Made by a program: the position numbers and the translations under genes | Sequence record: OR756193.1 | Length of the DNA: 44,198 nucleotides | Strand: one strand, 5' to 3' | Source: Escherichia phage vB_EcoS-EE09 | Notes under the pieces: generated by a model | What the model was told of the DNA's origin: nothing | The model's input: the letters and a program-made list of their open reading frames with translations, nothing else | The model's database searches: none | Shown here: positions 3,132 to 40,958 of the stretch, in pieces | How positions within the stretch are numbered: the stretch's first letter is position 1 | How the letters are laid out: every line of letters starts with the position of its first letter

Positions 3132-4952
3132 TTATTTCTTCAACGCCGCGATCTCGGCTTTCAAATCCTCCACTTCCGCCGACAGGCGTTTACACTCAGC
3201 GATCGCATATTGTGCGCACCCCATCAAGTCCATCACGATAGGGTTAACGTCTACCGACGGACGGTCGCGCGTCTTACCCCCGACGATGGCGTTAGTCTCG
3301 GGGTCCACCTCCACATCGTACGTCTCCTCTCGGTGTTTGATGTATTGAGGCGCAATCTCTTCTGCTTCCTCGGCAATGATGCCGAAGCGGACGCGCTCCT
3401 GCACATCGTCCTTATACACGTAGCGCACCATGCGCATTTGTTCAATGCGTGCAACCGCTTCGGTAACGTCCGCGTCGGTAATATCTTTCTTAAAGTCCCT
3501 TCCTGATGTACCCTGGAGGGCAATAACACCACCAGATGAGGGCCAGTTGACTGTGAAGCCAGTGCCGTCTCCCTTCTCAAAATATTTATAGATCAGGTTA
3601 CTATTGATATTAACCGTATCCCACATCGTGCGGAAGTTACCAGCCGGGACGGTAGCTTTTCCGTTGTTTAGAACGAAAGACAACGCTGAAGCTGTCTCTG
3701 TTGGGCGGACCGTGATATCTCGATGACTCATCATGCCGCTTATCCCCGATCCAGAGATCTCCATAACGGTATCGCGGTACGCGCCCGACGCGTCATATGA
3801 GTGCAACTTAAAATTGCCCGCGGCGTCGTTAATCCCCATGCGCCAGCGTACTTTATCGGCGGAATCAGCCCAACATACGCCACCAAAGCCCGACCCGTTC
3901 TGCTTAAGGATTAATCCATCTTGGGAGTCGCCGTTAGATTTGAATTGGCGGAACTCGGCGACGTTATCGCCGCGCCCCGTACCACCGAATGCAATCGGCA
4001 GCGGCATGGCTTTATTGTTGGCATTATCCCACCCGCCCCAGTCGCCATTTTCCTTAACGAAGATCCATTTATTCTTCGCCGCAGTCCTGATTTGTGTTTC
4101 GCCGCTGGTTATGTTTTGCGTTAGGCGGTCTACACCAATGTTTTCGCGCGCCACAGCCACATCCGCAACATCACTTAAGTTGTTGGCCTTCGCAAGTAGG
4201 TTTTCCGGGTTAACACTATTAGCGAATTGTTCGGCCTCATTGCGAAATCCTTGCGCGGCAGTGCGGGCAGCTTGCGCGTCCTCCTTCGCGGTATTGGCTT
4301 CATCACGAATAACGCCAGTGTCAGTCTTGATCTGATTCGTTTGGTCCTTGATCGCCTGCGTATCTGCCTTAAGTTGAGTGGTCTGGTCCTTGATCGCCTG
4401 CGTATCTGCCTTAAGTTGGCTGGTCTGCGTCTTGATGGTGTTGGCGTCGTTCTTGAAGCCTTCCGCCTCGTTACGGAATCCTTGCGCGGCTGCTTCCGAT
4501 GCGGCGGCTTGTTGTTGCAGGTTGCGCATCTCAACGGGGTCTACTTCCTTCAGCAAAGACGACAGGTAGCCCCACGACATACCCTGCATAACTTGCCCGT
4601 TCGGGAGCGTGACTGTGATTTCTTCAGCATCGCCGAAGATTGCACGCCAGTTGTTTTCATCTGCAATCATCAAGCGCAATGCTTTTTGGGCCTGTACGGT
4701 AACGCCCATCGTTGCCAGCGACATGGTATCGCGCTTAACGCCATCCCACGCAAGGCCGGTTGCCGTCGGGCCGTCGAACGGCAGCACCAGCGTAAGCGCC
4801 GTGTTACTTTCGATTGATGCGATCGCCACGGTGTAAGGCACTTGTCCTACCACCAGCGTTAAGAAGTCGCCAGCTTTAAACGCGGTAAACGTTGTGCCGA
4901 CCCCTACTACCGCCTTGCTGTTGTTCGTTACGGATAGAGTACCCGCTGCCAT
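3132..4952 (-). CDS. tail fibre protein with C-terminal intramolecular chaperone (peptidase S74-like) domain
   Basis: ORF track (track start at 4979 is a TTG inside the ATTGGTTGCA motif; ATG at 4952 with RBS GAGGA preferred); C-terminus has S-G-R-D-F-K-K-D-I followed by VRYVYKDD...RFGIIAEEAEEIAPQYI and a terminal coiled coil, the pattern of auto-cleaving chaperone domains of phage fibres. Confidence 0.75.
   Translation of the reverse strand: MAAGTLSVTNNSKAVVGVGTTFTAFKAGDFLTLVVGQVPYTVAIASIESNTALTLVLPFDGPTATGLAWDGVKRDTMSLATMGVTVQAQKALRLMIADENNWRAIFGDAEEITVTLPNGQVMQGMSWGYLSSLLKEVDPVEMRNLQQQAAASEAAAQGFRNEAEGFKNDANTIKTQTSQLKADTQAIKDQTTQLKADTQAIKDQTNQIKTDTGVIRDEANTAKEDAQAARTAAQGFRNEAEQFANSVNPENLLAKANNLSDVADVAVARENIGVDRLTQNITSGETQIRTAAKNKWIFVKENGDWGGWDNANNKAMPLPIAFGGTGRGDNVAEFRQFKSNGDSQDGLILKQNGSGFGGVCWADSADKVRWRMGINDAAGNFKLHSYDASGAYRDTVMEISGSGISGMMSHRDITVRPTETASALSFVLNNGKATVPAGNFRTMWDTVNINSNLIYKYFEKGDGTGFTVNWPSSGGVIALQGTSGRDFKKDITDADVTEAVARIEQMRMVRYVYKDDVQERVRFGIIAEEAEEIAPQYIKHREETYDVEVDPETNAIVGGKTRDRPSVDVNPIVMDLMGCAQYAIAECKRLSAEVEDLKAEIAALKK
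4341..4424 (-). repeat. two near-identical 42-bp tandem repeats inside the tail fibre gene
   Basis: TGGTCCTTGATCGCCTGCGTATCTGCCTTAAGTTG(A/G)(G/C)TGGTC twice with degenerate flanking copies; encodes 14-aa repeats (TQLKADTQAIKDQT-like). Confidence 0.8.
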
Positions 4953-4968
4953 AGCTAAATCCTCGTAA

Positions 4969-4978
4969 ATTGGTTGCA
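4969..4978. promoter_or_regulatory. ATTGGTTGCA motif in the divergent region between tail fibre and lipoprotein genes
   Basis: Exact 10-mer shared with 20819, 20832, 44170, 44187 and, in reverse, 1893, 31484, 31515, 34812. Confidence 0.5.
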
Positions 4979-5032
4979 ATCCTGGTTGAGCGGTGTAATA
5001 CTAAGACTCAACCAAATATAGGAGATGATAAC

Positions 5033-31940: not shown

Positions 31941-34282
31941 TTAATCTTTCAGGTCATCATCGGTCGCCGAAAGCGTGATGGGTATATTTGTTTTGATGAC
32001 GATATTCGACGACCCATAGATGGCCCCGGTGTGCGGATCTGTATAAAAACCTAGCACGCCGCGATCCACCATATCGTCTATTGCCTTCGTCGATGTGCCA
32101 CCTTTTGCCAATCCCGCCTGGCGGACGATTGCCGATTTACTGAATCCGGTATGGTCCGGGTTATCTTCCATCAGTTTTTCCAGTGCCGCATAAAGCACTT
32201 TCTCTTTTTCGTTGCGCGGCCCCGCGGCATTTTCTTCCTTAACTGCGGCTTTGCCAGCGGCCTTTGCCTGCTCAATAGCGAACGGTGCCAGGGCGACCGG
32301 TACGAGATACAGAGTCTCGTCGCGTGGCGTGGACGCGATCGGCTTGACGTCCCAACCGGCAACCACATCGCCGAAGTCAGGCCCGGTGCTGGTGGACTGG
32401 TGCGATTCGAACGCCTCGGACTTGCGGAGATCCACCTTAACCTTGCACTTGAGCAGGACGAATCCGCGCGGCGCTTGCTTGATGCCGTTACGTGCCTTTT
32501 CGTGATACAGGTTCAATTGGCCTGGTTGATTGTCGTCCGGTTGCTCCAGGAAGAACGCAGAATCAACAGCACCATGCAGCGCGCCGGACCCGCGTGGGGA
32601 TCTGCTGCCGTTTGCACCCTTCGCCGGGTGGTGGATGACGCCCGCACTGCCGCCTGTATTTTCCGCGATGGCCTTCAGCGCCTTGACCACTTCGCCCATA
32701 TCGCTGGCGTTGTTCTCGTCGAACGGTTTAGCATCGGCGGACCGCAGCGCAACAGTCTGGTTGAGTGAGTCGAACGCCACCAGGCCAACCGGTTCGCCGT
32801 TAGCGGTGCGGTTGATAAAGCTGATAACTTCACGCAAGCCGGATTTGCTGGTGATATCCCAGCCGCGAGATTGCAGGTCGATAATGTGCAGCTTGTCCAG
32901 GTCGTGCTCATATTTGATCTGCAATGCTTCCTTACGCTGGTTGGAGGCTTCGCCACCTTCCGCGTCGAAATAGAAGCAATGAGACTGGACGACCTTCGCA
33001 CCACCGAACGGGATCCCCGCGGCAACCGCACCCATTTGGCCCAGCACGTAGAACGATTTACCGATGTTCGATTCGCCAGCCATATACCAGGTCGATTTGA
33101 AGTTGACCAGGCCTTCTATGATCGGGTCGTGCTTACTGAACAGTGCGACCGGTTCGTTATCCAGGTCAGCGTCGGTACATACGCCGTACTCGTCGCCGTC
33201 TCCGACCGCATCAACGATATGCGCATAGCACGATTCCACTTCCTCGTCGTCCAGTCCTGGGAGGATGGCGGCGATTTGCTTACGTGACATGTTGTGCGGT
33301 TCGACGTTCAGGTGGTCCGGGATCCCGATAAGACGTAGCGCCAGGTGCTGGTGTCTGTTCAGTTCCGAGCAACACTCGTTGCCGGTGTGCATACACTTGA
33401 AACGGATCTCGCCATCCTTAACCATGATAGCGGTGGACCCTTCGCCGCTGTGCAGGTGTTCGTTCGGGCATGGCACTTCATAACCACGACCGGACGACAG
33501 CGGTTCGAATCCTGCCTGGAAGCACCAGTCCAGAATTCCGTCCGTTACGCCAGCGTCGCCCTGGGTCAGTTCGCGGCGCACTTCCTCTTTTTCCACTCCC
33601 CGCTTATCAGCCAGGCGGAGCAGACGACGGACGCGGGCGCGCTTGCCATAGTGGCACTTAATAACAGACTGCTGGTGTGGCAGGTACATCAGGCGGTTTG
33701 TGTCTTTCGTGCAGTCGTCGAAGTCCACATCGGACAAACCAAGTTGGTGTAATAGCGCATACTGGACGCGGCCCAGGTCTTCCGCCGGTACAGGCTTGTC
33801 GGTCAACACCAGGAAACGGGCGCAACGCGTGGCGCATACTGGACGCGGCCCAGGTCTTCCGCCGGTACAGGCTTGTCGGTCAACACCAGGAAACGGGCGC
33901 AACGCGTGCCGCCTTTCAGCGGGTGGCGGTCGCCGGTTGTGGTGTGAAATACGTGTTCCAGCCCCGCGTCAATGAACGCCTTACGGCAGCGGCGTAGGGT
34001 GCGGGTGTCGGTACGGTCGATATCAAAGAACAGGATCGAGCGGTCCACCGCACTGGTCTTACGACGCAATCCGTCACTGGTATACGCCACGATGCCATCG
34101 GCCTTACGCTTGCGGCGCGCATACTCGGCTTTATCTTCCGTCTTATTGATATGCACCGAGGAGATTTCTTTCGCATCATTGATAAATTCGAAAAATTCAT
34201 CGGTGGTCATCTGGAAGTTTTCCGCCCTGGCTTTTTCGCCTTTTTTAGCGGGTCTTGTTACAGCGAATTTAATTAAGCTCAT
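31941..34282 (-). pseudogene. DNA primase-helicase (AEP/PrimPol-like N-domain plus P-loop NTPase), frame broken by a 77-bp tandem duplication
   Basis: N-terminal ORF (33803-34282) has the AEP motif LFFDIDR and a conserved His; the C-terminal ORF (31941-33902) has a Cys/His cluster and Walker A GESNIGKS; both contain TRCARFLVLTDKPVPAEDLGRVQYA; removing one 77-bp copy gives a single 2265-nt (754-codon) frame. Confidence 0.7.
33755..33908. repeat. perfect 77-bp tandem direct duplication (two copies)
   Basis: 33755-33831 is identical to 33832-33908 (GCGCATACTGGACGCGGCCCAGGTCTTCCGCCGGTACAGGCTTGTCGGTCAACACCAGGAAACGGGCGCAACGCGTG). Confidence 0.9.
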
Positions 34283-34292
34283 TGCCGTGGCC

Positions 34293-34622
34293 TTACTTAG
34301 AAGTTTTATTATTGCGTACCCAGGAGCGCACTGTGCTCTGATTAATTCCGGTCAACTCGGCAATCATCGCCCAGGATTTGCCCTCGGCGCGCAAACGGAT
34401 AACCTGTTTTTTGTATTCTTCCATTTCTTCATTGTGCTTTTGCAGCTTGCTTGCTGCAGTACCGTTGAGTAATTCCAGCTTCGCGCGCAATTCTTTTTCG
34501 GTAAGTCGCAGACGTTCGATTTCAAATAGCACCGCACCCACGGCATCGGTATACGCCCATGACCGGCTTGTTTCACTGCTAACAGTCTTCGTTAACATTT
34601 CGATTGCGTCGTTTACATTCAT
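34293..34622 (-). CDS. small HTH DNA-binding protein (109 aa), putative regulator
   Basis: Coiled-coil-like N-terminus and C-terminal helix-turn-helix-like KSWAMIAELTGINQSTVRSWV; first gene of the leftward unit. Confidence 0.55.
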   Translation of the reverse strand: MNVNDAIEMLTKTVSSETSRSWAYTDAVGAVLFEIERLRLTEKELRAKLELLNGTAASKLQKHNEEMEEYKKQVIRLRAEGKSWAMIAELTGINQSTVRSWVRNNKTSK

Positions 34623-34653
34623 TGTTCTGTCCCCAGTTGGTTAATGACCAATG

Positions 34654-34682
34654 AAACTACACCTAAAACCGCAAGGTGTCAA
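34654..34682 (-). promoter_or_regulatory. candidate leftward sigma70 promoter with overlapping palindromic operator
   Basis: On the minus strand: TTGACA, 17-nt spacer, TAGTTT; near-palindrome TTGGTTAATGACCAA (about 34637-34651) lies between the predicted start site and the RBS of the HTH gene. Confidence 0.4.
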
Positions 34683-34753
34683 ATCCTTTGGATATTGAAA
34701 CGGGCGCGCACGCGTGTAATAATAATTCCCGTCTCATTGTCTCTTATTGGTTA

Positions 34754-34787
34754 GCGCCGTCGCATTTTGCCTCGGCGCTTTTTTTTT
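34754..34787 (+). terminator. plus-strand rho-independent terminator inside the divergent control region
   Basis: GCGCCG-13 nt loop-CGGCGC hairpin followed by a T9 run; no annotated plus-strand gene upstream. Confidence 0.6.
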
Positions 34788-34798
34788 GAAATTAGTTG

Positions 34799-34828
34799 TT
34801 GACACCCATCCTGCAACCAATCTATTAT
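34799..34828 (+). promoter_or_regulatory. candidate strong rightward sigma70 early promoter
   Basis: Consensus -35 TTGACA, 18-nt spacer containing TGCAACCAAT, -10 TATTAT; about 200 bp upstream of the first rightward gene. Confidence 0.5.
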
Positions 34829-35024
34829 TCACTCCGTCGACAGGATGCAGGACGCAAACTGGAGAGGGGCAACGCAGGGGCCGGATCGAAGTGTCAGGAT
34901 TCCCAACCGTGATTATATAACCTGGTCCACTACCCGAACGGGAGAACGCGCAACCGGGCAATATGTTAAGGCCACCGACGAAGTTAACTGCCGACATCTA
35001 AACTTAACCAATCGGAGATATACC

Positions 35025-35543
35025 ATGTTTGAGCAAATCGTAAACCTGATCACTCGCGGCGTAGTAGCACTGGAAACCATCGCTAAACATTATGAAACCG
35101 TTGGCGCTGCCGTTGGTAAGCAGGAAGACAAGAAGCCGTCTAAGGCCAAAAAAGAAGTTGTCGAAGATGACGACGATGAAGTCGAAGACGAAAAACCGGC
35201 TAAATCTAAAAAAGCCCCGGCGAAAGGTAAATCCAAAAAAGAAGTCGTAGAAGATGACGACGACGAGGATGCCGAAGATGAAAAACCGGCTAAGTCTAAA
35301 AAAGCACCGGCGAAAGGCAAAGGTAAGAAAGATGCCGATCCGCTGGCGGAGATGCGCGACGAAATCAAACAGTATGCCGCGATTATCGCCGGTGGCGATG
35401 ACGACGATGCGAACGACGAATTCGACGACCTGCTGGAATCGTTCGAGATCAAATCAATCGCCAAGCTGGAAGATGACGACGTCGAAGACTTCCACAAAGA
35501 GCTAAAAGAAATCGTCGAAACCTATTTCGAACTGGAAGATTAA
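35025..35543 (+). CDS. highly charged repeat protein (172 aa), first gene of the rightward early operon
   Basis: ORF track trimmed to the ATG with RBS GGAGA 6 nt upstream; two tandem ~29-aa repeats KKEVVEDDDDE..EDEKPAKSKKAPAKGK; strongly acidic C-terminal half. Confidence 0.65.
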   Translation: MFEQIVNLITRGVVALETIAKHYETVGAAVGKQEDKKPSKAKKEVVEDDDDEVEDEKPAKSKKAPAKGKSKKEVVEDDDDEDAEDEKPAKSKKAPAKGKGKKDADPLAEMRDEIKQYAAIIAGGDDDDANDEFDDLLESFEIKSIAKLEDDDVEDFHKELKEIVETYFELED

Positions 35544-35591
35544 TATATTCCGGCCCGCTAATCTGCGGGCCTATTTTTAGAGGACGAGACA

Positions 35592-35843
35592 ATGGCACGC
35601 TTCACGCTAATCGAGGCGGTGGACTCCCGCGACCAGCGCCCGTACTATTGGCTATTCGAACGCATCGGCAGCTTTCAGTCACGCGTTGCCGTAATAGATA
35701 AACGCCGTAACACCCCCGCGCAAATTAAGCGCACCACCTTTACTAACCCCGACTTTTATATTTGGGCGGATTCCAATCTGGAATATGTTCGCTTCGCAGT
35801 TGCATCCGAAGCAAAAACAATTGACCGCTGGGAGACAAAATAA
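35592..35843 (+). CDS. hypothetical protein (83 aa)
   Basis: ORF track; RBS GAGGA upstream of ATG. Confidence 0.55.
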   Translation: MARFTLIEAVDSRDQRPYYWLFERIGSFQSRVAVIDKRRNTPAQIKRTTFTNPDFYIWADSNLEYVRFAVASEAKTIDRWETK

Positions 35844-36032
35844 ATGGCTATATTCTTTGTTTTATTTCGTTGCCGTATTACCGGCGACGAGCAACCGGAA
35901 ATTGTTATGAATCAAAACTGGAATTGCTGCTGGATGCAAGCCCGAGGACTGGCGGCTACCATGAACAATGCCGCTAAGCGGGCCAATGTTGAACATGACT
36001 ATTACATTGCTCAATTTACACGGGTGGAATGA
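35844..36032 (+). CDS. hypothetical protein (62 aa)
   Basis: ORF track; start and stop coupled to neighbours (TAAATG, ATGA). Confidence 0.4.
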   Translation: MAIFFVLFRCRITGDEQPEIVMNQNWNCCWMQARGLAATMNNAAKRANVEHDYYIAQFTRVE

Positions 36033-37462
36033 TGGCGATTAAACCAAAACGTAAAACGCAATCCGGTAGCAATACGGAGCACTCATTACTCGGGCCATCC
36101 GGTGCTAAAAAATGGATGGGTTGCCCTGCCGCCCTGGTGGTGGAAAAAGATATCCCGAACGAATCCGGGCAAGCCGCGATTAACGGTACGAGTATGCACA
36201 CCGTATCGGAGGTGGTGCTAAACCGCATTATCGCCGGTGAGAAGCTGATAACCGCGAAGACGTATAAAGGGTGCTACGTCGAGAACGAAGGCAAGGGGCC
36301 GGTAAAGGCGCACCCGAAAGCACCGAAAGGCGGCGTACTGGTCACCGACGATATGGTGAAACAGTGCGACGCGTACATCGACCACTGGCGACCGCTCCTC
36401 GAAGTGGCGGAGTTTGTTCGGCTTGAGATGCGCGCCGATCTGACCCGCGTCCTACACTCTGGCTTCGAGATCGACGGCAACCGGGTTAAGACGTTCGGTA
36501 CTGCCGATATGGTCATGGTCATGAAGAAGACCGACGGCACGTACATGCTGATTGTTGGCGACCTGAAGACGGGGCGGCATAAGGTCGAGGCGAAAGAAAA
36601 CAAACAGCTTATGTTGTATGCGCTGGGCCTGCTGCGCAAGCTGAAAACCATGTACGACATTACGACCGTGCGCCTGGCTATCTTCCAGCCGTATTGCGGC
36701 GGGGCGTCGGAGTGGGATATTTCGGTAGAAGCCCTGGAGATATTCGCGAAGTTTGCGGCCAAGCGTGCGATCGCCGCCCTGGAAGCGTACGCCCGCGGTA
36801 AGAAAGGACTCACCCGTGCCGACTTCCGACCGAGCGTTGATGCGTGCCAGTGGTGCAGATTTGCGGATCAGTGTAGTGCCCGCGCTAAGGCCGCAATCGA
36901 CACGATGACACCTCCAACGGCAACCGACGAAGACCTGGGCGACGACGTGAGTATCGCTACAGAGGAGGAATGCGCCAACCACGATCGCAATATGGCCCGC
37001 GAAGCCCGGAAGGCGGCACGACGTGCGAAGCGTGGCAAGAAAGAAGCGGCCCCCGGCGCTATGACCGCCGCAGAACTGCGCAAGGCATATGAAGGTCTAG
37101 ACGCAATGCGCCAGCACATCAAGGCTATCGAGTACGCAGTATTCAAGGCTGTGATGGCGGGCAATGGTGAATCGCTGGGCCTCAAGATGGTTGCCGGTAA
37201 GGAAGGGATCCGCAAATGGGCGGACGAGAGCGAGGTGATTGAAATCTTCACGAAGGCCCGGATCAAGCGCGACGTGATGTACAAAGAAACATTGCTCAGT
37301 CCTACCGACGCCGAGAAGGTATTGAAGGACGAGAAACCGAAAGTGTGGGCGAAATTGTGTGATAAAATCACGCGCGCACCGGCTAAACCTGTATTAGCAC
37401 CAATTGACGACCCGCGCCCCGCGTGGTCTGAAGCTACCGACGAGGACTTAAGTAATGAATAA
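36029..37462 (+). CDS. PD-(D/E)xK nuclease, Cas4-like / DUF2800-type (477 aa)
   Basis: Nuclease core D...IVGDLKTG and a C-terminal Cys cluster C-x2-W-C-x5-C consistent with an Fe-S Cas4/RecB-like exonuclease. Confidence 0.65.
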   Translation: MMAIKPKRKTQSGSNTEHSLLGPSGAKKWMGCPAALVVEKDIPNESGQAAINGTSMHTVSEVVLNRIIAGEKLITAKTYKGCYVENEGKGPVKAHPKAPKGGVLVTDDMVKQCDAYIDHWRPLLEVAEFVRLEMRADLTRVLHSGFEIDGNRVKTFGTADMVMVMKKTDGTYMLIVGDLKTGRHKVEAKENKQLMLYALGLLRKLKTMYDITTVRLAIFQPYCGGASEWDISVEALEIFAKFAAKRAIAALEAYARGKKGLTRADFRPSVDACQWCRFADQCSARAKAAIDTMTPPTATDEDLGDDVSIATEEECANHDRNMAREARKAARRAKRGKKEAAPGAMTAAELRKAYEGLDAMRQHIKAIEYAVFKAVMAGNGESLGLKMVAGKEGIRKWADESEVIEIFTKARIKRDVMYKETLLSPTDAEKVLKDEKPKVWAKLCDKITRAPAKPVLAPIDDPRPAWSEATDEDLSNE

Positions 37463-37697: not shown

Positions 37698-37787
37698 CCG
37701 CTTAGGCGCAACCAAGTAGATTAGCAACCAAGCCGAACGGGGTGGCTTCCAATAACCCCGATACATGTGAAAATGAGGAATTGGAAA

Positions 37788-38573
37788 ATGGCTAAAGTCA
37801 ACCTGAAAAATGTGCGTGTATGTTTCCTGAAAATTTGGGAACGTGATACCCCTAAACAGGATGGACAAAAACCGGCATACCGTGCCGTGATTCTTCTTGA
37901 TAAAGAAGATCCGCAGGTGGACAAAGTGGAAGCGGCAGCGCGCGCAGTGCTCACCGACAAGCTGAAATCTGAGAAGAATGCCGATAAGTGGATGGACCGC
38001 CACTACGCCCAGGATTCTAAGGAATGCGCAGTTCGTGACGGTGACGAGCGCGACGAAGTAACCGAAGAATTCGAAGGCATGTTGTACATCAACGCTAAAT
38101 CGTTCAAACAGCCAAACATTCAAACGTCACTCGGCGAGAAGCAGACCGAACAGGGTCTGACCGTAGAAGGCGACGAGATCGAAGGCCAGGAGATCTACTC
38201 CGGTTGTTATTGCAACGTGTCCCTTGATATCTGGGCGTGGAACAATACCAACGGCAAGGGACTCGGTGCTGGCTTGCTGGGTTTACGCTTCCGTGATGAC
38301 GGTGAAGCCTTCGGGGGTGGCGGGTCTTCTTGCTCCGATGAAGACCTGGACAACGACGACGAAGACGAAGCACCGCGCAAGTCCAAAAAGTCAAAACGTC
38401 GTGATGACGATGATGAAGATGACAAGCCGCGCAAGTCCAAGAAATCCAAGCGCCGCGATGACGACGACGATGAGGAAGATGAAAAACCTCGCAAACGTCG
38501 TAAGCCACGCGATGACGAAGATGAGGACGACGACGACGAAGACGAAGCGCCACGTAAACGTCGCCGCCGTTAA
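37788..38573 (+). CDS. DUF2815-like putative ssDNA-binding protein with charged repeat tail
   Basis: ORF track trimmed to the ATG with RBS GAGGA 7 nt upstream; MAKVNLKNVRV... N-terminus; C-terminal ~85 aa of tandem PRKSKKSKRRDDDDED-type repeats. Confidence 0.55.
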   Translation: MAKVNLKNVRVCFLKIWERDTPKQDGQKPAYRAVILLDKEDPQVDKVEAAARAVLTDKLKSEKNADKWMDRHYAQDSKECAVRDGDERDEVTEEFEGMLYINAKSFKQPNIQTSLGEKQTEQGLTVEGDEIEGQEIYSGCYCNVSLDIWAWNNTNGKGLGAGLLGLRFRDDGEAFGGGGSSCSDEDLDNDDEDEAPRKSKKSKRRDDDDEDDKPRKSKKSKRRDDDDDEEDEKPRKRRKPRDDEDEDDDDEDEAPRKRRRR

Positions 38574-38631: not shown

Positions 38632-38802
38632 ATGCGTATTAAAGCCAGCGAAGTAAAAGTCGGAATGCAAGTATGGTCCAAGCTACTGGGGGAATATTTC
38701 ACAGTTGCCGAGATTCGCAACAACGGCGAAGAGATCGCCCTGTCAGACGGCATCTTCTCCACGATCGGCAGCGCTGACGCCGTAGTGAGGATAAAGCAAT
38801 GA
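38632..38802 (+). CDS. small hypothetical protein (56 aa) coupled to the DNA polymerase gene
   Basis: RBS AGGA; stop overlaps the polymerase ATG (ATGA); too short for the ORF track. Confidence 0.45.
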   Translation: MRIKASEVKVGMQVWSKLLGEYFTVAEIRNNGEEIALSDGIFSTIGSADAVVRIKQ

Positions 38803-40958
38803 AAGACTTCGAACGTCTGTTTCTCGACACCGAGACATTTAGCGGGGTGGACCTGAAGAAAGTAGGGGCGTACGCCTACGCAGAGCACCCAACCACCGAG
38901 ATTATGATTTGCACCTACGCCATCGACGAAGGCCGCGTGCAGACATGGGATGCCACTGAATCCCCAACAATGCCGCGTGAACTGCGCAAGGCGCTCCGTC
39001 AGGTATCCCGCAAGAAAGCAAAAATCGTGATGGCTAACGGCCTCCTGTTTGACCGCCTGGTTATCCGTGAGAAGTGGGGAATCGACCTGCCGGTAAGCCA
39101 GATCGAAGATACCATGATTATGGCCTTTCGCCACGCGCTGCCGGGTAGTCTCGATATGCAGTGTCAGGTGCTGGGCGTTGACGCAGAGCACGCGAAGGAT
39201 AAGGCCGGCAAGGCGCTGATCAAACGATTCTGTAAGCCTACCCCTAAGACCTACAAAATACGCCGCTACACGCGCGAGACTCACCCTGAAGAATGGGCCA
39301 AATTTCTGCGATATGCCGCTCTTGATATTATCGCGATGCGTGAGGTCTACTGGCGCATACCGGACTGGGGTAATACTCCGAAGGAAGACGAGATACTGCT
39401 TATTGACCAGTTGATCAACGACCGCGGCTTCTATGTGGACGTTGACCTGGCGAACGCCGCGATCAAAGCGGTGCAGGCGCATAAGGAAGAATTGAAGGAG
39501 GAAGCCTGGGAGCGATTTGGCGGTAAGCTGACCGGCAATGACTTCCTGCCAATCCTGCGTGATATCGCCCCAGCGTTCACAATCCACAACGCGCAGAAAT
39601 CCACACTTAACGACCTGCTTGAAGACCCGGACTTCCCCGACGAAGGCAAAGCGCTTATCGAAATGCGCCTCGGTGCGTCATCAACGGCATCGACTAAGTA
39701 CAATCCGCTAGTTAACGGCTTATCCGCAGACGGTCGCCGCCGTGGGTGTCTTCAGTATGGTGGTGCAAAGCGCACGCTGCGCTGGGCCGGTAAAGGCTTC
39801 CAGCCGCAAAACCTGGCACGCGGCGAGTATAGCGACGATCACGAAGGGAAGATTAAGCGCCGCGAAGGCGAGAGCGACGTTGCTTTTTGGGTCCGGTCGC
39901 ACATGCTCACCAACGGCATCAATTCCCTGTTACGCGGGACCGCGCACTGGGCGTATGACATATCTAAGCTAACAGCCTCGACCGTTCGCGGGTGCATTAT
40001 CCCGGCTAAGGGCAAGAAGTTTGTCGTAGCGGACTACTCCAACGTGGAAGGGCGTGGACTTGCCTGGATCGCGGGCGAGAAAACAGCGCTCATGGTGTTT
40101 AAGGCCGGTCGCGATATCTATTGTGAGACTGCCGGTAAGATGTTCGGCCTGGACCCGGACTACATTAAAGCCAACCGCAAGGACTTGCGCCAGATCGGTA
40201 AGGCGTGCGAATTGGGGCTGGGCTATGGTGGCGGCGTCGCGGCGTTCTTGCAGTTCGCTAAAAACCTGGGACTCGACCTTTACACTATGGCGGACGTGAT
40301 GAAAGGCACGTTCCCGGATCACATTTGGGCGGCGGCGAAGCGCGGTTATGAGTACGCCCGCATTAACGAAGCGAAACGCCCACCGAAGCCGGGTAAGAAG
40401 GACGAGCGCCCGACTTACATACTGCCGAAAAACGTATGGCTTACTTGTGACGCGATCAAACGTATGTGGCGTGAGGCTCACCCGAAGACGGTAGCCTTTT
40501 GGGCCGAGCTTGAGGACGCGGTGTTGTGTGCAATCCGCAATCCGGGCAAAGCATACTGGGCTGGTGCGAACGTTCACCCGGACGGTGGCATCGCGCTGTC
40601 TGTCACTACCGAGATCGACGAAGACACCGGCAAGAAGCGCACCAGCACACGCATTAAATATCAGGGCGAGAATCAGACGACGCGCCAGTGGGGCTTCCAG
40701 TATACCTACGGCGGCAAACTGACGGAGAACATCGTACAGGCGTTATGCCGTGATATTCTCGCCTGGTCAATGCCTGGCGTTGAAGCTGCGGGCTATGAAA
40801 TCGTTCTATCGGTGCATGATGAATTGATCACAGAAGTGCCGGACACCGACGACTACACGACCGAGGAGCTTTGCGCGCTGATGTGCGACCTGCCTATTTG
40901 GGCAAAAGGCTTCCCACTTGCCGCGGAAGGCGACATCATGTACAGGTACAGGAAATAA
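38799..40958 (+). CDS. family A DNA polymerase with 3'-5' exonuclease domain (719 aa)
   Basis: Exo I motif LDTETFS near the N-terminus; polymerase motifs R-Q-I-G-K-A-C-E-L-G-L-G-Y-G-G-G (motif B-like) and V-H-D-E-L (motif C). Confidence 0.85.
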   Translation: MKDFERLFLDTETFSGVDLKKVGAYAYAEHPTTEIMICTYAIDEGRVQTWDATESPTMPRELRKALRQVSRKKAKIVMANGLLFDRLVIREKWGIDLPVSQIEDTMIMAFRHALPGSLDMQCQVLGVDAEHAKDKAGKALIKRFCKPTPKTYKIRRYTRETHPEEWAKFLRYAALDIIAMREVYWRIPDWGNTPKEDEILLIDQLINDRGFYVDVDLANAAIKAVQAHKEELKEEAWERFGGKLTGNDFLPILRDIAPAFTIHNAQKSTLNDLLEDPDFPDEGKALIEMRLGASSTASTKYNPLVNGLSADGRRRGCLQYGGAKRTLRWAGKGFQPQNLARGEYSDDHEGKIKRREGESDVAFWVRSHMLTNGINSLLRGTAHWAYDISKLTASTVRGCIIPAKGKKFVVADYSNVEGRGLAWIAGEKTALMVFKAGRDIYCETAGKMFGLDPDYIKANRKDLRQIGKACELGLGYGGGVAAFLQFAKNLGLDLYTMADVMKGTFPDHIWAAAKRGYEYARINEAKRPPKPGKKDERPTYILPKNVWLTCDAIKRMWREAHPKTVAFWAELEDAVLCAIRNPGKAYWAGANVHPDGGIALSVTTEIDEDTGKKRTSTRIKYQGENQTTRQWGFQYTYGGKLTENIVQALCRDILAWSMPGVEAAGYEIVLSVHDELITEVPDTDDYTTEELCALMCDLPIWAKGFPLAAEGDIMYRYRK

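Follow-up and report, generated by a model that had tools for sequence, protein, structure and literature searches.

What does a phage encode when the first gene behind a consensus-like promoter specifies an intensely charged protein built around a tandem repeat? The locus that raises this question lies at 35025-35543 on the plus strand of a 44,198-nucleotide (nt) stretch of DNA from Escherichia phage vB_EcoS-EE09 (OR756193.1), the whole of which we call the window. An initial annotation, made from the letters alone, had proposed that the product is a DNA mimic or a chromatin-like protein with a role in early host takeover or anti-defence. The region 34600-36100 is 95-97% identical to many Dhillonvirus genomes (175 records matched, including PTXU06, Over9000, Gluttony, welsh and Sodalis phage SO-1), and by this measure the source phage is a Dhillonvirus, i.e., an HK578-like E. 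coli siphophage. The gene corresponds to HK578_044 (gp44), SO-1 gp46 and VOG1545; almost all records call the product a "hypothetical protein", and a literature search found no paper on it. We found that gp44 consists of three parts, namely a conserved N-terminal helix (N-helix), a disordered mixed-charge tether and a conserved acidic three-helix bundle, and that its gene, hitherto unstudied, stands first in a set of DNA-replication genes common to many phages. The features of the gene, with lengths in amino acids (aa) and AlphaFold confidence as predicted local distance difference test (pLDDT), are these:

34799-34828, plus strand: sigma-70-type promoter, TTGACA-18-TATTAT, 11 of 12 positions, predicted start near 34835
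35014-35017, plus strand: Shine-Dalgarno sequence GGAG, 7 nt 5' of the ATG, read from the sequence
35025-35543, plus strand: coding sequence of the HK578 gp44 family (PHROG 3127), ATG at 35025 to TAA at 35543, 172 aa
35028-35105, plus strand: N-terminal amphipathic helix, aa 2-27, an AlphaFold helix with pLDDT of about 50-60; conserved
35106-35336, plus strand: mixed-charge disordered linker, aa 28-104, with a Lys-rich patch; AlphaFold pLDDT <50
35148-35234, plus strand: repeat unit 1, 29 aa, an acidic block then a basic block, KKEVVEDDDDEVEDEKPAKSKKAPAKGKS
35235-35324, plus strand: repeat unit 2, 30 aa, KKEVVEDDDDEDAEDEKPAKSKKAPAKGKG
35337-35540, plus strand: acidic three-helix bundle, aa 105-172, net charge -20, AlphaFold2 pLDDT ~90; the best-conserved part

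gp44 has conserved ends and a variable, charged middle

The protein contains 53 D/E and 30 K/R residues, has a pI of 4.46 and carries a net charge of -23, which is distributed unevenly: the N-terminal 33 aa are neutral, the linker is at -3 and the last 68 aa are at -20. These values bear out the initial description of a highly charged 172-aa protein with a strongly acidic C-terminal part, an acidity that is also conserved in homologues, and AlphaFold predicts the chain to be largely disordered. A longer open reading frame (ORF) of 232 aa starting at 34845 was rejected as an artefact; it crosses a non-coding RNA element that is missing in some phages that retain a full-length gp44-type ORF. Six Dhillonviruses share the promoter, and in the HK578 record a promoter is marked at the corresponding place. 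The gene had been described as the first behind a consensus-like early promoter; the promoter itself holds up, and early timing is what its type and position would suggest.

AlphaFold2 places the helices of the C-terminal bundle at residues 106-123, 127-139 and 150-168, and family alignments show a conserved pattern across this domain (LR.EI...A..I..GD.D...D.FDDLLE.F.VK.V.KL.D.DV..FH..LK.IV..YF). Conservation at the other end centers on M1, L8, R11, A15, E17 and A20, each kept in at least 90% of family sequences. The N-helix is not docked on the C-domain in AlphaFold models of the 172-aa protein or of a natural 115-aa variant; packing of one end on the other was considered and rejected, as modelling of the short variant gave no confident packing. 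The N-helix probably serves for docking or oligomerisation. Purifying selection on both ends is strong, and neither shows diversification; this is consistent with binding to a conserved partner rather than with an arms race.

The linker spans 13 to 125 aa in the family and is not alignable. Its median charge is -2, and that of the C-domain is -18 (range -22 to 0). A K/R-rich patch just N-terminal to the C-domain is present in 137 of 149 sequences, with a median of 6 K/R in the best 12-aa window; the Lys-rich segments pointed out in the initial annotation are thus a conserved compositional feature of the family.

Tandem Repeats Finder reports the repeat at 35146-35321 (period 90, 2.0 copies, 87% matches, score 273), in agreement with the earlier report of two tandem ~29-aa repeats from 87/90-bp DNA repeats, which we confirmed as in-frame units of 29 and 30 aa. 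The two units differ at 10 codons (8 synonymous, 2 non-synonymous) and by a one-codon indel, and this synonymous excess indicates that the repeat is translated and under purifying selection rather than a chance feature. Within each unit, an acidic block of the same length offsets the charge of the basic block, which leaves the linker at its net -3. Among 97 Dhillonvirus-type cluster representatives, the linker holds no acidic block in 6, one in 41 and two in 50, and protein lengths group at ~115-124, 140-147 and 163-173 aa. Because zero, one or two units occur while both ends are near-invariant, the repeat is best seen as a copy-number-variable spacer, and the conserved ends are likely the functional parts. 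To judge from these natural variants, the repeats are dispensable and are not the functional core.

gp44 has relatives in many phages and matches no characterised family

The gp44 sequence matches the PHROG 3127 profile over residues 1-172 (E = 1.6e-53), and of 38 diverse family members, 37 hit the same profile; no function is assigned to PHROG 3127. We found 166 relatives among 5.8 billion proteins, none with a Pfam domain, and an exhaustive profile search of 1.84 billion cluster representatives recovered just 61 clusters, all of small proteins (31-212 aa). A tblastn search with a clade-B member returned 631 phage records, mostly from Salmonella and Escherichia phages, and the family, a small one confined to phages, spans Dhillonvirus, Guernseyvirinae including Jerseyvirus, Kagunavirus and others (at least 631 enterobacterial phage records).

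Homology to a known structural or enzymatic protein, which the initial annotation had named as the outcome that would count against its proposal, was not found in Pfam, NCBIfam, PDB or Foldseek searches. A Pfam scan of gp44 at E <= 1 gave four weak compositional matches and no Ocr, ArdA, linker histone or high-mobility group (HMG) hit, and the scan of 38 family members likewise contained no match to these four. NCBIfam and PDB-sequence searches returned compositional noise or nothing, Foldseek against PDB returned nothing below E = 0.39, and BFVD returned family members and uncharacterised proteins of similar architecture only. In these comparisons gp44 showed no sequence or fold likeness to Ocr, ArdA, Gam, gp5.9, linker histones or the HMG box. 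Names given to family members can mislead; two such are "prohead core protein" (vB_EcoS-UDS3lw) and "TolA" (roseophage RDJL Phi 2 gp40), the latter attributable to a charged linker.

gp44 sits in a conserved replication-recombination module

The gene order in the window is primase-helicase (minus strand), HTH_23 protein (minus strand), the divergent gp44 gene (plus strand), genes for 83-aa and 62-aa proteins and a DUF2800 nuclease, followed by an 80-aa gene, an Enc34-type SSB (a protein that binds single-stranded DNA) and the polymerase PolA, with an SNF2 helicase further on. The named members around gp44 are:

34293-34622, minus strand: 109-aa helix-turn-helix (HTH) protein of the HTH_23 type, HK578 gp45 homologue, divergent; Pfam matches to HTH families only
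35592-35843, plus strand: 83-aa gene, HK578 gp43 homologue (PHROG 4965), same module
36029-37462, plus strand: DUF2800 / PD-(D/E)XK (Cas4-like) exonuclease, Pfam E = 6e-66
37767-38573, plus strand: Enc34-type (T7 gp2.5-like) SSB, DUF2815, Pfam E = 1e-31
38799-40958, plus strand: family A DNA polymerase (PolA), domain identified among the window genes

We examined synteny in 43 IMG/VR loci whose gp44 relatives are 28-97% identical, 41 of which extend far enough to be informative; the whole-family alignment was too variable to seed the locus search, and a closer alignment (A1) was used instead. In every one of the 41 informative loci, DUF2800 begins 0.5-1.45 kb past the gp44 homologue's start; on the same strand, the offset is +2.0 to 3.3 kb for SSB and +2.9 to 4.6 kb for PolA. 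The order is also kept in a metagenomic clade, in Guernseyvirinae including Jerseyvirus S100, and in Scappvirus. Even in a divergent contig where the gp44-type gene lies mid-operon, immediately 5' of the nuclease, the module order is preserved. The gp43 homologue likewise follows the gp44 homologue in many loci, also outside Dhillonvirus.

The arrangement extends to distant phages. Going divergently from the primase of RDJL Phi 2, gp40 comes first; two small ORFs and a DUF2800 nuclease come next, and an Enc34-type SSB and PolA are located farther downstream, with other genes around them. The gp40 C-domain matches the family profile (hhalign E = 2e-4) and clearly resembles the family members P0171 and P0173. 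Enc34 ORF3 lies at the corresponding position and shares the design of helix, Lys-rich linker and helical domain, with no significant sequence similarity. Phages of Alpha- and Gammaproteobacteria alike retain the family and its position, and in some members the C-domain is close to neutral. Genomic context is the strongest line of evidence in the analysis, and on this comparative evidence the gp44 family is a fixed member of a DUF2800 / Enc34-type SSB / PolA module in several genera and host classes. Such membership is more in keeping with a function in the module than with a host-specific accessory against defence, and the host-takeover or anti-defence role first suggested for gp44 loses ground accordingly.

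The linker resembles the tail of the module SSB

The C-terminus of the SSB (38400-38573) ends in DEAPRKSKKSKRRDDDDEDDKPRKSKKSKRRDDDDDEEDEKPRKRRKPRDDEDEDDDDEDEAPRKRRRR. Its tail unit, DDDDEDDKPRKSKKSKRR, occurs in 1-4 copies in 41 loci, with an Arg-rich tip in all; in the source phage, acidic and basic blocks alternate along the tail, 3-4 in all, up to a terminal PRKRRRR. The same alternation, an acidic run followed by a basic run of the form KP-x-KSKK, is seen in both the gp44 linker and the SSB tail. Local alignment of their DNA scored 47, compared with 24.9 +/- 4.0 (maximum 38) for codon shuffles, and alignment of the proteins scored 127, compared with 71 +/- 8.9 (maximum 106) for residue shuffles. 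By these scores, the likeness of linker and tail exceeds what composition accounts for.

The tails of typical T7-type SSBs, including Enc34 ORF6, are purely acidic (PMC5686142). In the two phages where we compared such a tail (RDJL Phi 2 gp29 and Enc34 ORF6), it goes with a far less acidic C-domain in the protein at the gp44 position. This contrast suggests a model in which the acidic bundle of gp44 binds the basic tip or basic blocks of the SSB tail.

gp44 may act as a tethered adaptor

We tentatively favour a reading, put forward as a leading possibility short of a probable one, in which gp44 is a non-enzymatic, stoichiometric tethered adaptor or regulator of the replication-recombination module, possibly working through the SSB tail. 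The N-helix would anchor or oligomerise gp44, and the acidic bundle would bind a partner's basic surface. As partner, the module SSB, with its acidic/basic tail and Arg-rich tip, is the most specific candidate; the nuclease is the alternative. Repeat number would merely tune reach or valency. The gene's own promoter, together with its own terminator (described below), would favour high expression of gp44 relative to the downstream genes.

Several points weigh against this interpretation. Some family records, including the homologue in Salmonella phage MB78, bear the name "13.88 kDa late protein", which conflicts with early expression if it is experimentally based; we looked for the origin of the MB78 name and did not trace it. 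Synteny alone is compatible, on our analysis, with an anti-RecBCD role; lambda gam adjoins bet and exo in a likewise conserved arrangement. The correlation between SSB-tail and C-domain charge consists of two contrasting phages and is confounded by phylogeny, and the likeness of linker and tail could stem from shared low-complexity mutational processes.

A bolder version of the adaptor reading, which is speculative and rather unlikely in its entirety, would make gp44 a "charge-block zipper", an unrecognised core accessory of the widespread module whose linker and acidic head pair with the SSB tail, thereby ordering SSB, nuclease and replisome on the phage DNA, perhaps in the form of an electrostatic condensate. 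Gain and loss of repeats in both proteins would tune valency, and in most Dhillonviruses the mRNA would also carry a mobile structured RNA of a class not in Rfam 15.

In either version, the three-part design, the module membership and the link to the SSB tail provide a testable hypothesis on how a common replication module is organised. Many of the phages that carry the gp44 family are candidates for therapy or biocontrol, and the tempting "Ocr-like" label is removed from gp44 as unsupported.

Alternative roles for gp44

The alternative that survives best holds that the acidic three-helix domain is a DNA-mimic decoy against a host enzyme, most plausibly RecBCD (as an analogue of Gam or gp5.9), or else against a restriction enzyme or nucleoid protein. 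We regard it as unlikely, though deserving of serious thought. The net -20 of the last 68 aa, the strong promoter and private terminator, and the position upstream of an exonuclease and an SSB, as in lambda gam-bet-exo and T7 5.9-6, would all suit a decoy. Furthermore, P2 OLD acts against Dhillonviruses, and the triggers known for this system inhibit RecBCD (bioRxiv 10.64898/2026.07.10.737580). However, the HK578 mutants that escape OLD carry a frameshift in gp43 (a 1-nt deletion), a point mutation within gp46 (the helicase-primase) or a deletion within the gp45-gp46 promoter region, and none falls in gp44 (bioRxiv 10.64898/2026.07.10.737580). The deleted promoter region is the same divergent intergenic region that holds the gp44 promoter. 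The 83-aa gene at 35592-35843, the gp43 homologue, is a better candidate than gp44 for the OLD trigger or a RecBCD-related factor.

In BASEL, Queuovirinae are described as resistant to restriction of types I and II, "particularly if compared to" Dhillonvirus and Drexlerviridae (PMC8594841), and this comparative sensitivity of Dhillonviruses argues, indirectly, against an Ocr-like activity of gp44. The lack of sequence or fold likeness to Ocr, ArdA, Gam and gp5.9, the retention of family and position across phages of two proteobacterial classes with some C-domains near-neutral, and the strong purifying selection on both ends without diversification also speak against a decoy. Of the proposal that gp44 is an Ocr-type DNA mimic or anti-restriction factor, membership of such a family is therefore dropped for want of any sequence or fold match, and what is left is that the acidic C-domain may mimic DNA.

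Other defence-related determinants were considered for gp44 and set aside. Ksap1, a characterised Dhillonvirus determinant (the KpAvs2 trigger), is a 74-aa protein encoded elsewhere; anti-Tmn is ORF35, which has a beta-sheet fold; the RAZR trigger is the portal protein; and escapers of Retron-Eco8 and Borvo map to SSB and polymerase.

It is improbable that gp44 is a histone H1-like or HMG-like nucleic-acid binder whose Lys/Ala/Pro blocks coat or condense phage or host DNA. The KPAKSKKAPAKGK blocks do look like H1 tails, and the K/R-rich patch before the C-domain recurs throughout most of the family. Each basic block is nevertheless paired with an acidic block of equal length, so that the linker comes to -3 and the protein to -23; the three-helix domain is acidic rather than basic; no linker-histone or HMG match appears in Pfam at E <= 1; and the repeats are dispensable in natural variants. 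Membership of the H1 or HMG families, to which the resemblance noted at the outset had pointed, is thus not supported.

Still more doubtful, in our estimate, is a lambda N-like transcription regulator of the early-to-middle switch that enables read-through of the terminator into the replication genes. The layout of promoter, long leader, first gene, terminator and replication genes would be apt for such a factor, as would the divergent orientation from an HTH regulator. gp44 has no Arg-rich RNA-binding motif and no likeness to known antiterminators, sigma factors or anti-sigma factors, however, and in the divergent contig the gene sits mid-operon right before the nuclease.

A virion, scaffold or "prohead core" protein is scarcely credible: the name used in vB_EcoS-UDS3lw and the acidic, helical, partly disordered character typical of scaffolds are outweighed by the location of gp44 in the replication module, far from the morphogenesis genes, and by the functionally unassigned PHROG 3127 with no structural-protein family match.

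A structured RNA in the leader and other transcription signals

Two further elements flank the coding sequence:

34831-34992, plus strand: structured leader RNA, ~160 nt, between the promoter and the Shine-Dalgarno sequence; covariance model R1, 159 bits
35552-35580, plus strand: strong intrinsic terminator, GGCCCGC-loop-GCGGGCC, with the stem-loop at 35552-35571 and a T run after it

Across the 400-bp intergenic region, conservation exceeds that of the genes that flank it. The RNA block is present in 11 of 15 Dhillonvirus loci, and is absent from the other 4 and from phage "rolling". The same block, at 83-92% identity, is found in intergenic regions of Murrayvirus, Jilinvirus, several Drexlerviridae and Serratia phage MQ-4; outside Dhillonvirus, it invariably has sense orientation and lies a short distance upstream of small, unrelated genes. 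From 10 sequences of 8 phage lineages, RNAalifold derived a consensus of 32 pairs in 6 helices, 14 of which pairs are changed on both sides. Pairing is retained in 96.9% of cells, compared with 85.3 +/- 1.3% in shuffles (0 of 500 shuffles reach the observed value), and falls to 30-49% when the partners are slid. The single-sequence folding energy is unremarkable.

Searched with the covariance model, the window contained a single copy, and no copy was found beside gp44 homologues of phages other than Dhillonvirus; a search of Rfam 15 gave no match. On the basis of its covariation, we consider the leader RNA a credible new structured RNA motif that is not tied to the gp44 family, and a candidate for a new class of cis-regulatory RNA or ribozyme. 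It offers a separate lead for RNA biology in lytic phages. The terminator after gp44 occurs both with and without the leader RNA and is thus uninformative on put-like antitermination and on a lambda N-like role of gp44.

The terminator lies directly 3' of the gp44-type gene in 17 of 20 related loci; a small extra ORF intervenes in the remaining 3. Its stem, GGCCCGC/GCGGGCC, is conserved, and its loop reads CTAATCT in some phages and the inverted CAGATTAG in others.

Upstream of the main promoter, a promoter-like sequence with an extended TG (TTGAAA-17-AATAAT) lies at 34695-34723 on the plus strand, where the HK578 record also annotates a promoter, and a stem-loop with a T9 terminator follows ~30 nt past it, at ~34752-34788. 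Six Dhillonviruses share the sequence of 34695-34788 without a change, also where the flanking DNA diverges. Read at face value, this segment could yield a small RNA of ~55-60 nt just upstream of the main promoter.

Other features of the window

The divergent 109-aa gene (34293-34622, minus strand) is variously named "DNA recombination nuclease inhibitor Gamma", "transposase" or "resolvase" across records. We reject the "Gam" label as spurious: Pfam reports HTH_23, HTH_28 and sigma-70 region 4 only, and no Gam family. The protein is probably a regulator of the divergent promoters.

At 33755-33908, in the minus-strand gene at 31941-34282, 77 bp are duplicated in tandem without a mismatch (77 of 77 identical). 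The duplication splits the primase-helicase into ORFs of 159 aa and 653 aa; without it, the gene would have 755 codons, as in relatives. As 77 is a common SPAdes k-mer size, the duplication is likely an untrimmed assembly overlap from re-orienting a circular contig and not a real frameshift.

A 42-bp tandem repeat at 4342-4436 (2.3 copies, 92% identity) falls in the minus-strand ORF at 3132-4979; the 615-aa product, which we guess to be a tail-fibre or coiled-coil protein, thereby contains the heptad-like segment IKTQTSQLKADTQAIKDQ in repeated form.

Comparison with known systems

Ocr (T7 gp0.3) and ArdA are, like gp44, small and very acidic proteins; early and abundant expression, which would extend the parallel, is only probable for gp44. 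They are fully folded, elongated dimers that imitate bent B-DNA, whereas gp44 is mostly disordered around a generic 60-residue three-helix bundle, and an elongated folded dimer with a DNA-like array of carboxylates was not found in it. The RecBCD inhibitors lambda Gam, T7 gp5.9 and P22 Abc2 come closer in setting, as they too are small, helical, acidic and encoded beside phage exonuclease and annealing or SSB genes. They differ from gp44 in that no sequence or fold similarity links them, and the OLD escapers hit its neighbour gp43 and replication-initiation genes.

The C-terminal tails of H1 and bacterial H1-like proteins are disordered and rich in Lys/Ala/Pro blocks, as is gp44, and HMGB1 resembles gp44 in combining basic and acidic segments in one chain. 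gp44, however, has neither a winged-helix globular domain nor the basic, L-shaped three-helix domain of an HMG box, its basic blocks are neutralised and its repeats are dispensable.

The tails of E. coli SSB, T7 gp2.5 and Enc34 ORF6 are flexible charged segments for contacts with replisome proteins, a property that the gp44 linker may share. Canonical SSB tails are purely acidic, whereas the blocks of gp44 alternate in charge and lie between two folded or helical elements of a separate protein. The C-terminal three-helix bundle of Red-beta binds lambda Exo; gp44 similarly has a small bundle within a recombination module and could bridge a nuclease and a partner that binds single-stranded DNA, although the two show no sequence similarity and the Foldseek match is not significant (E = 5.3). 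Finally, bL12, P1/P2 and the spacers of TonB and TolA follow a logic of anchor, flexible linker and head, and share tolerance of linker length with gp44 without homology to it. TolA and TonB are held by a membrane anchor, whereas gp44 has no transmembrane anchor and begins instead with an amphipathic helix marked by the conserved R11 and E17.

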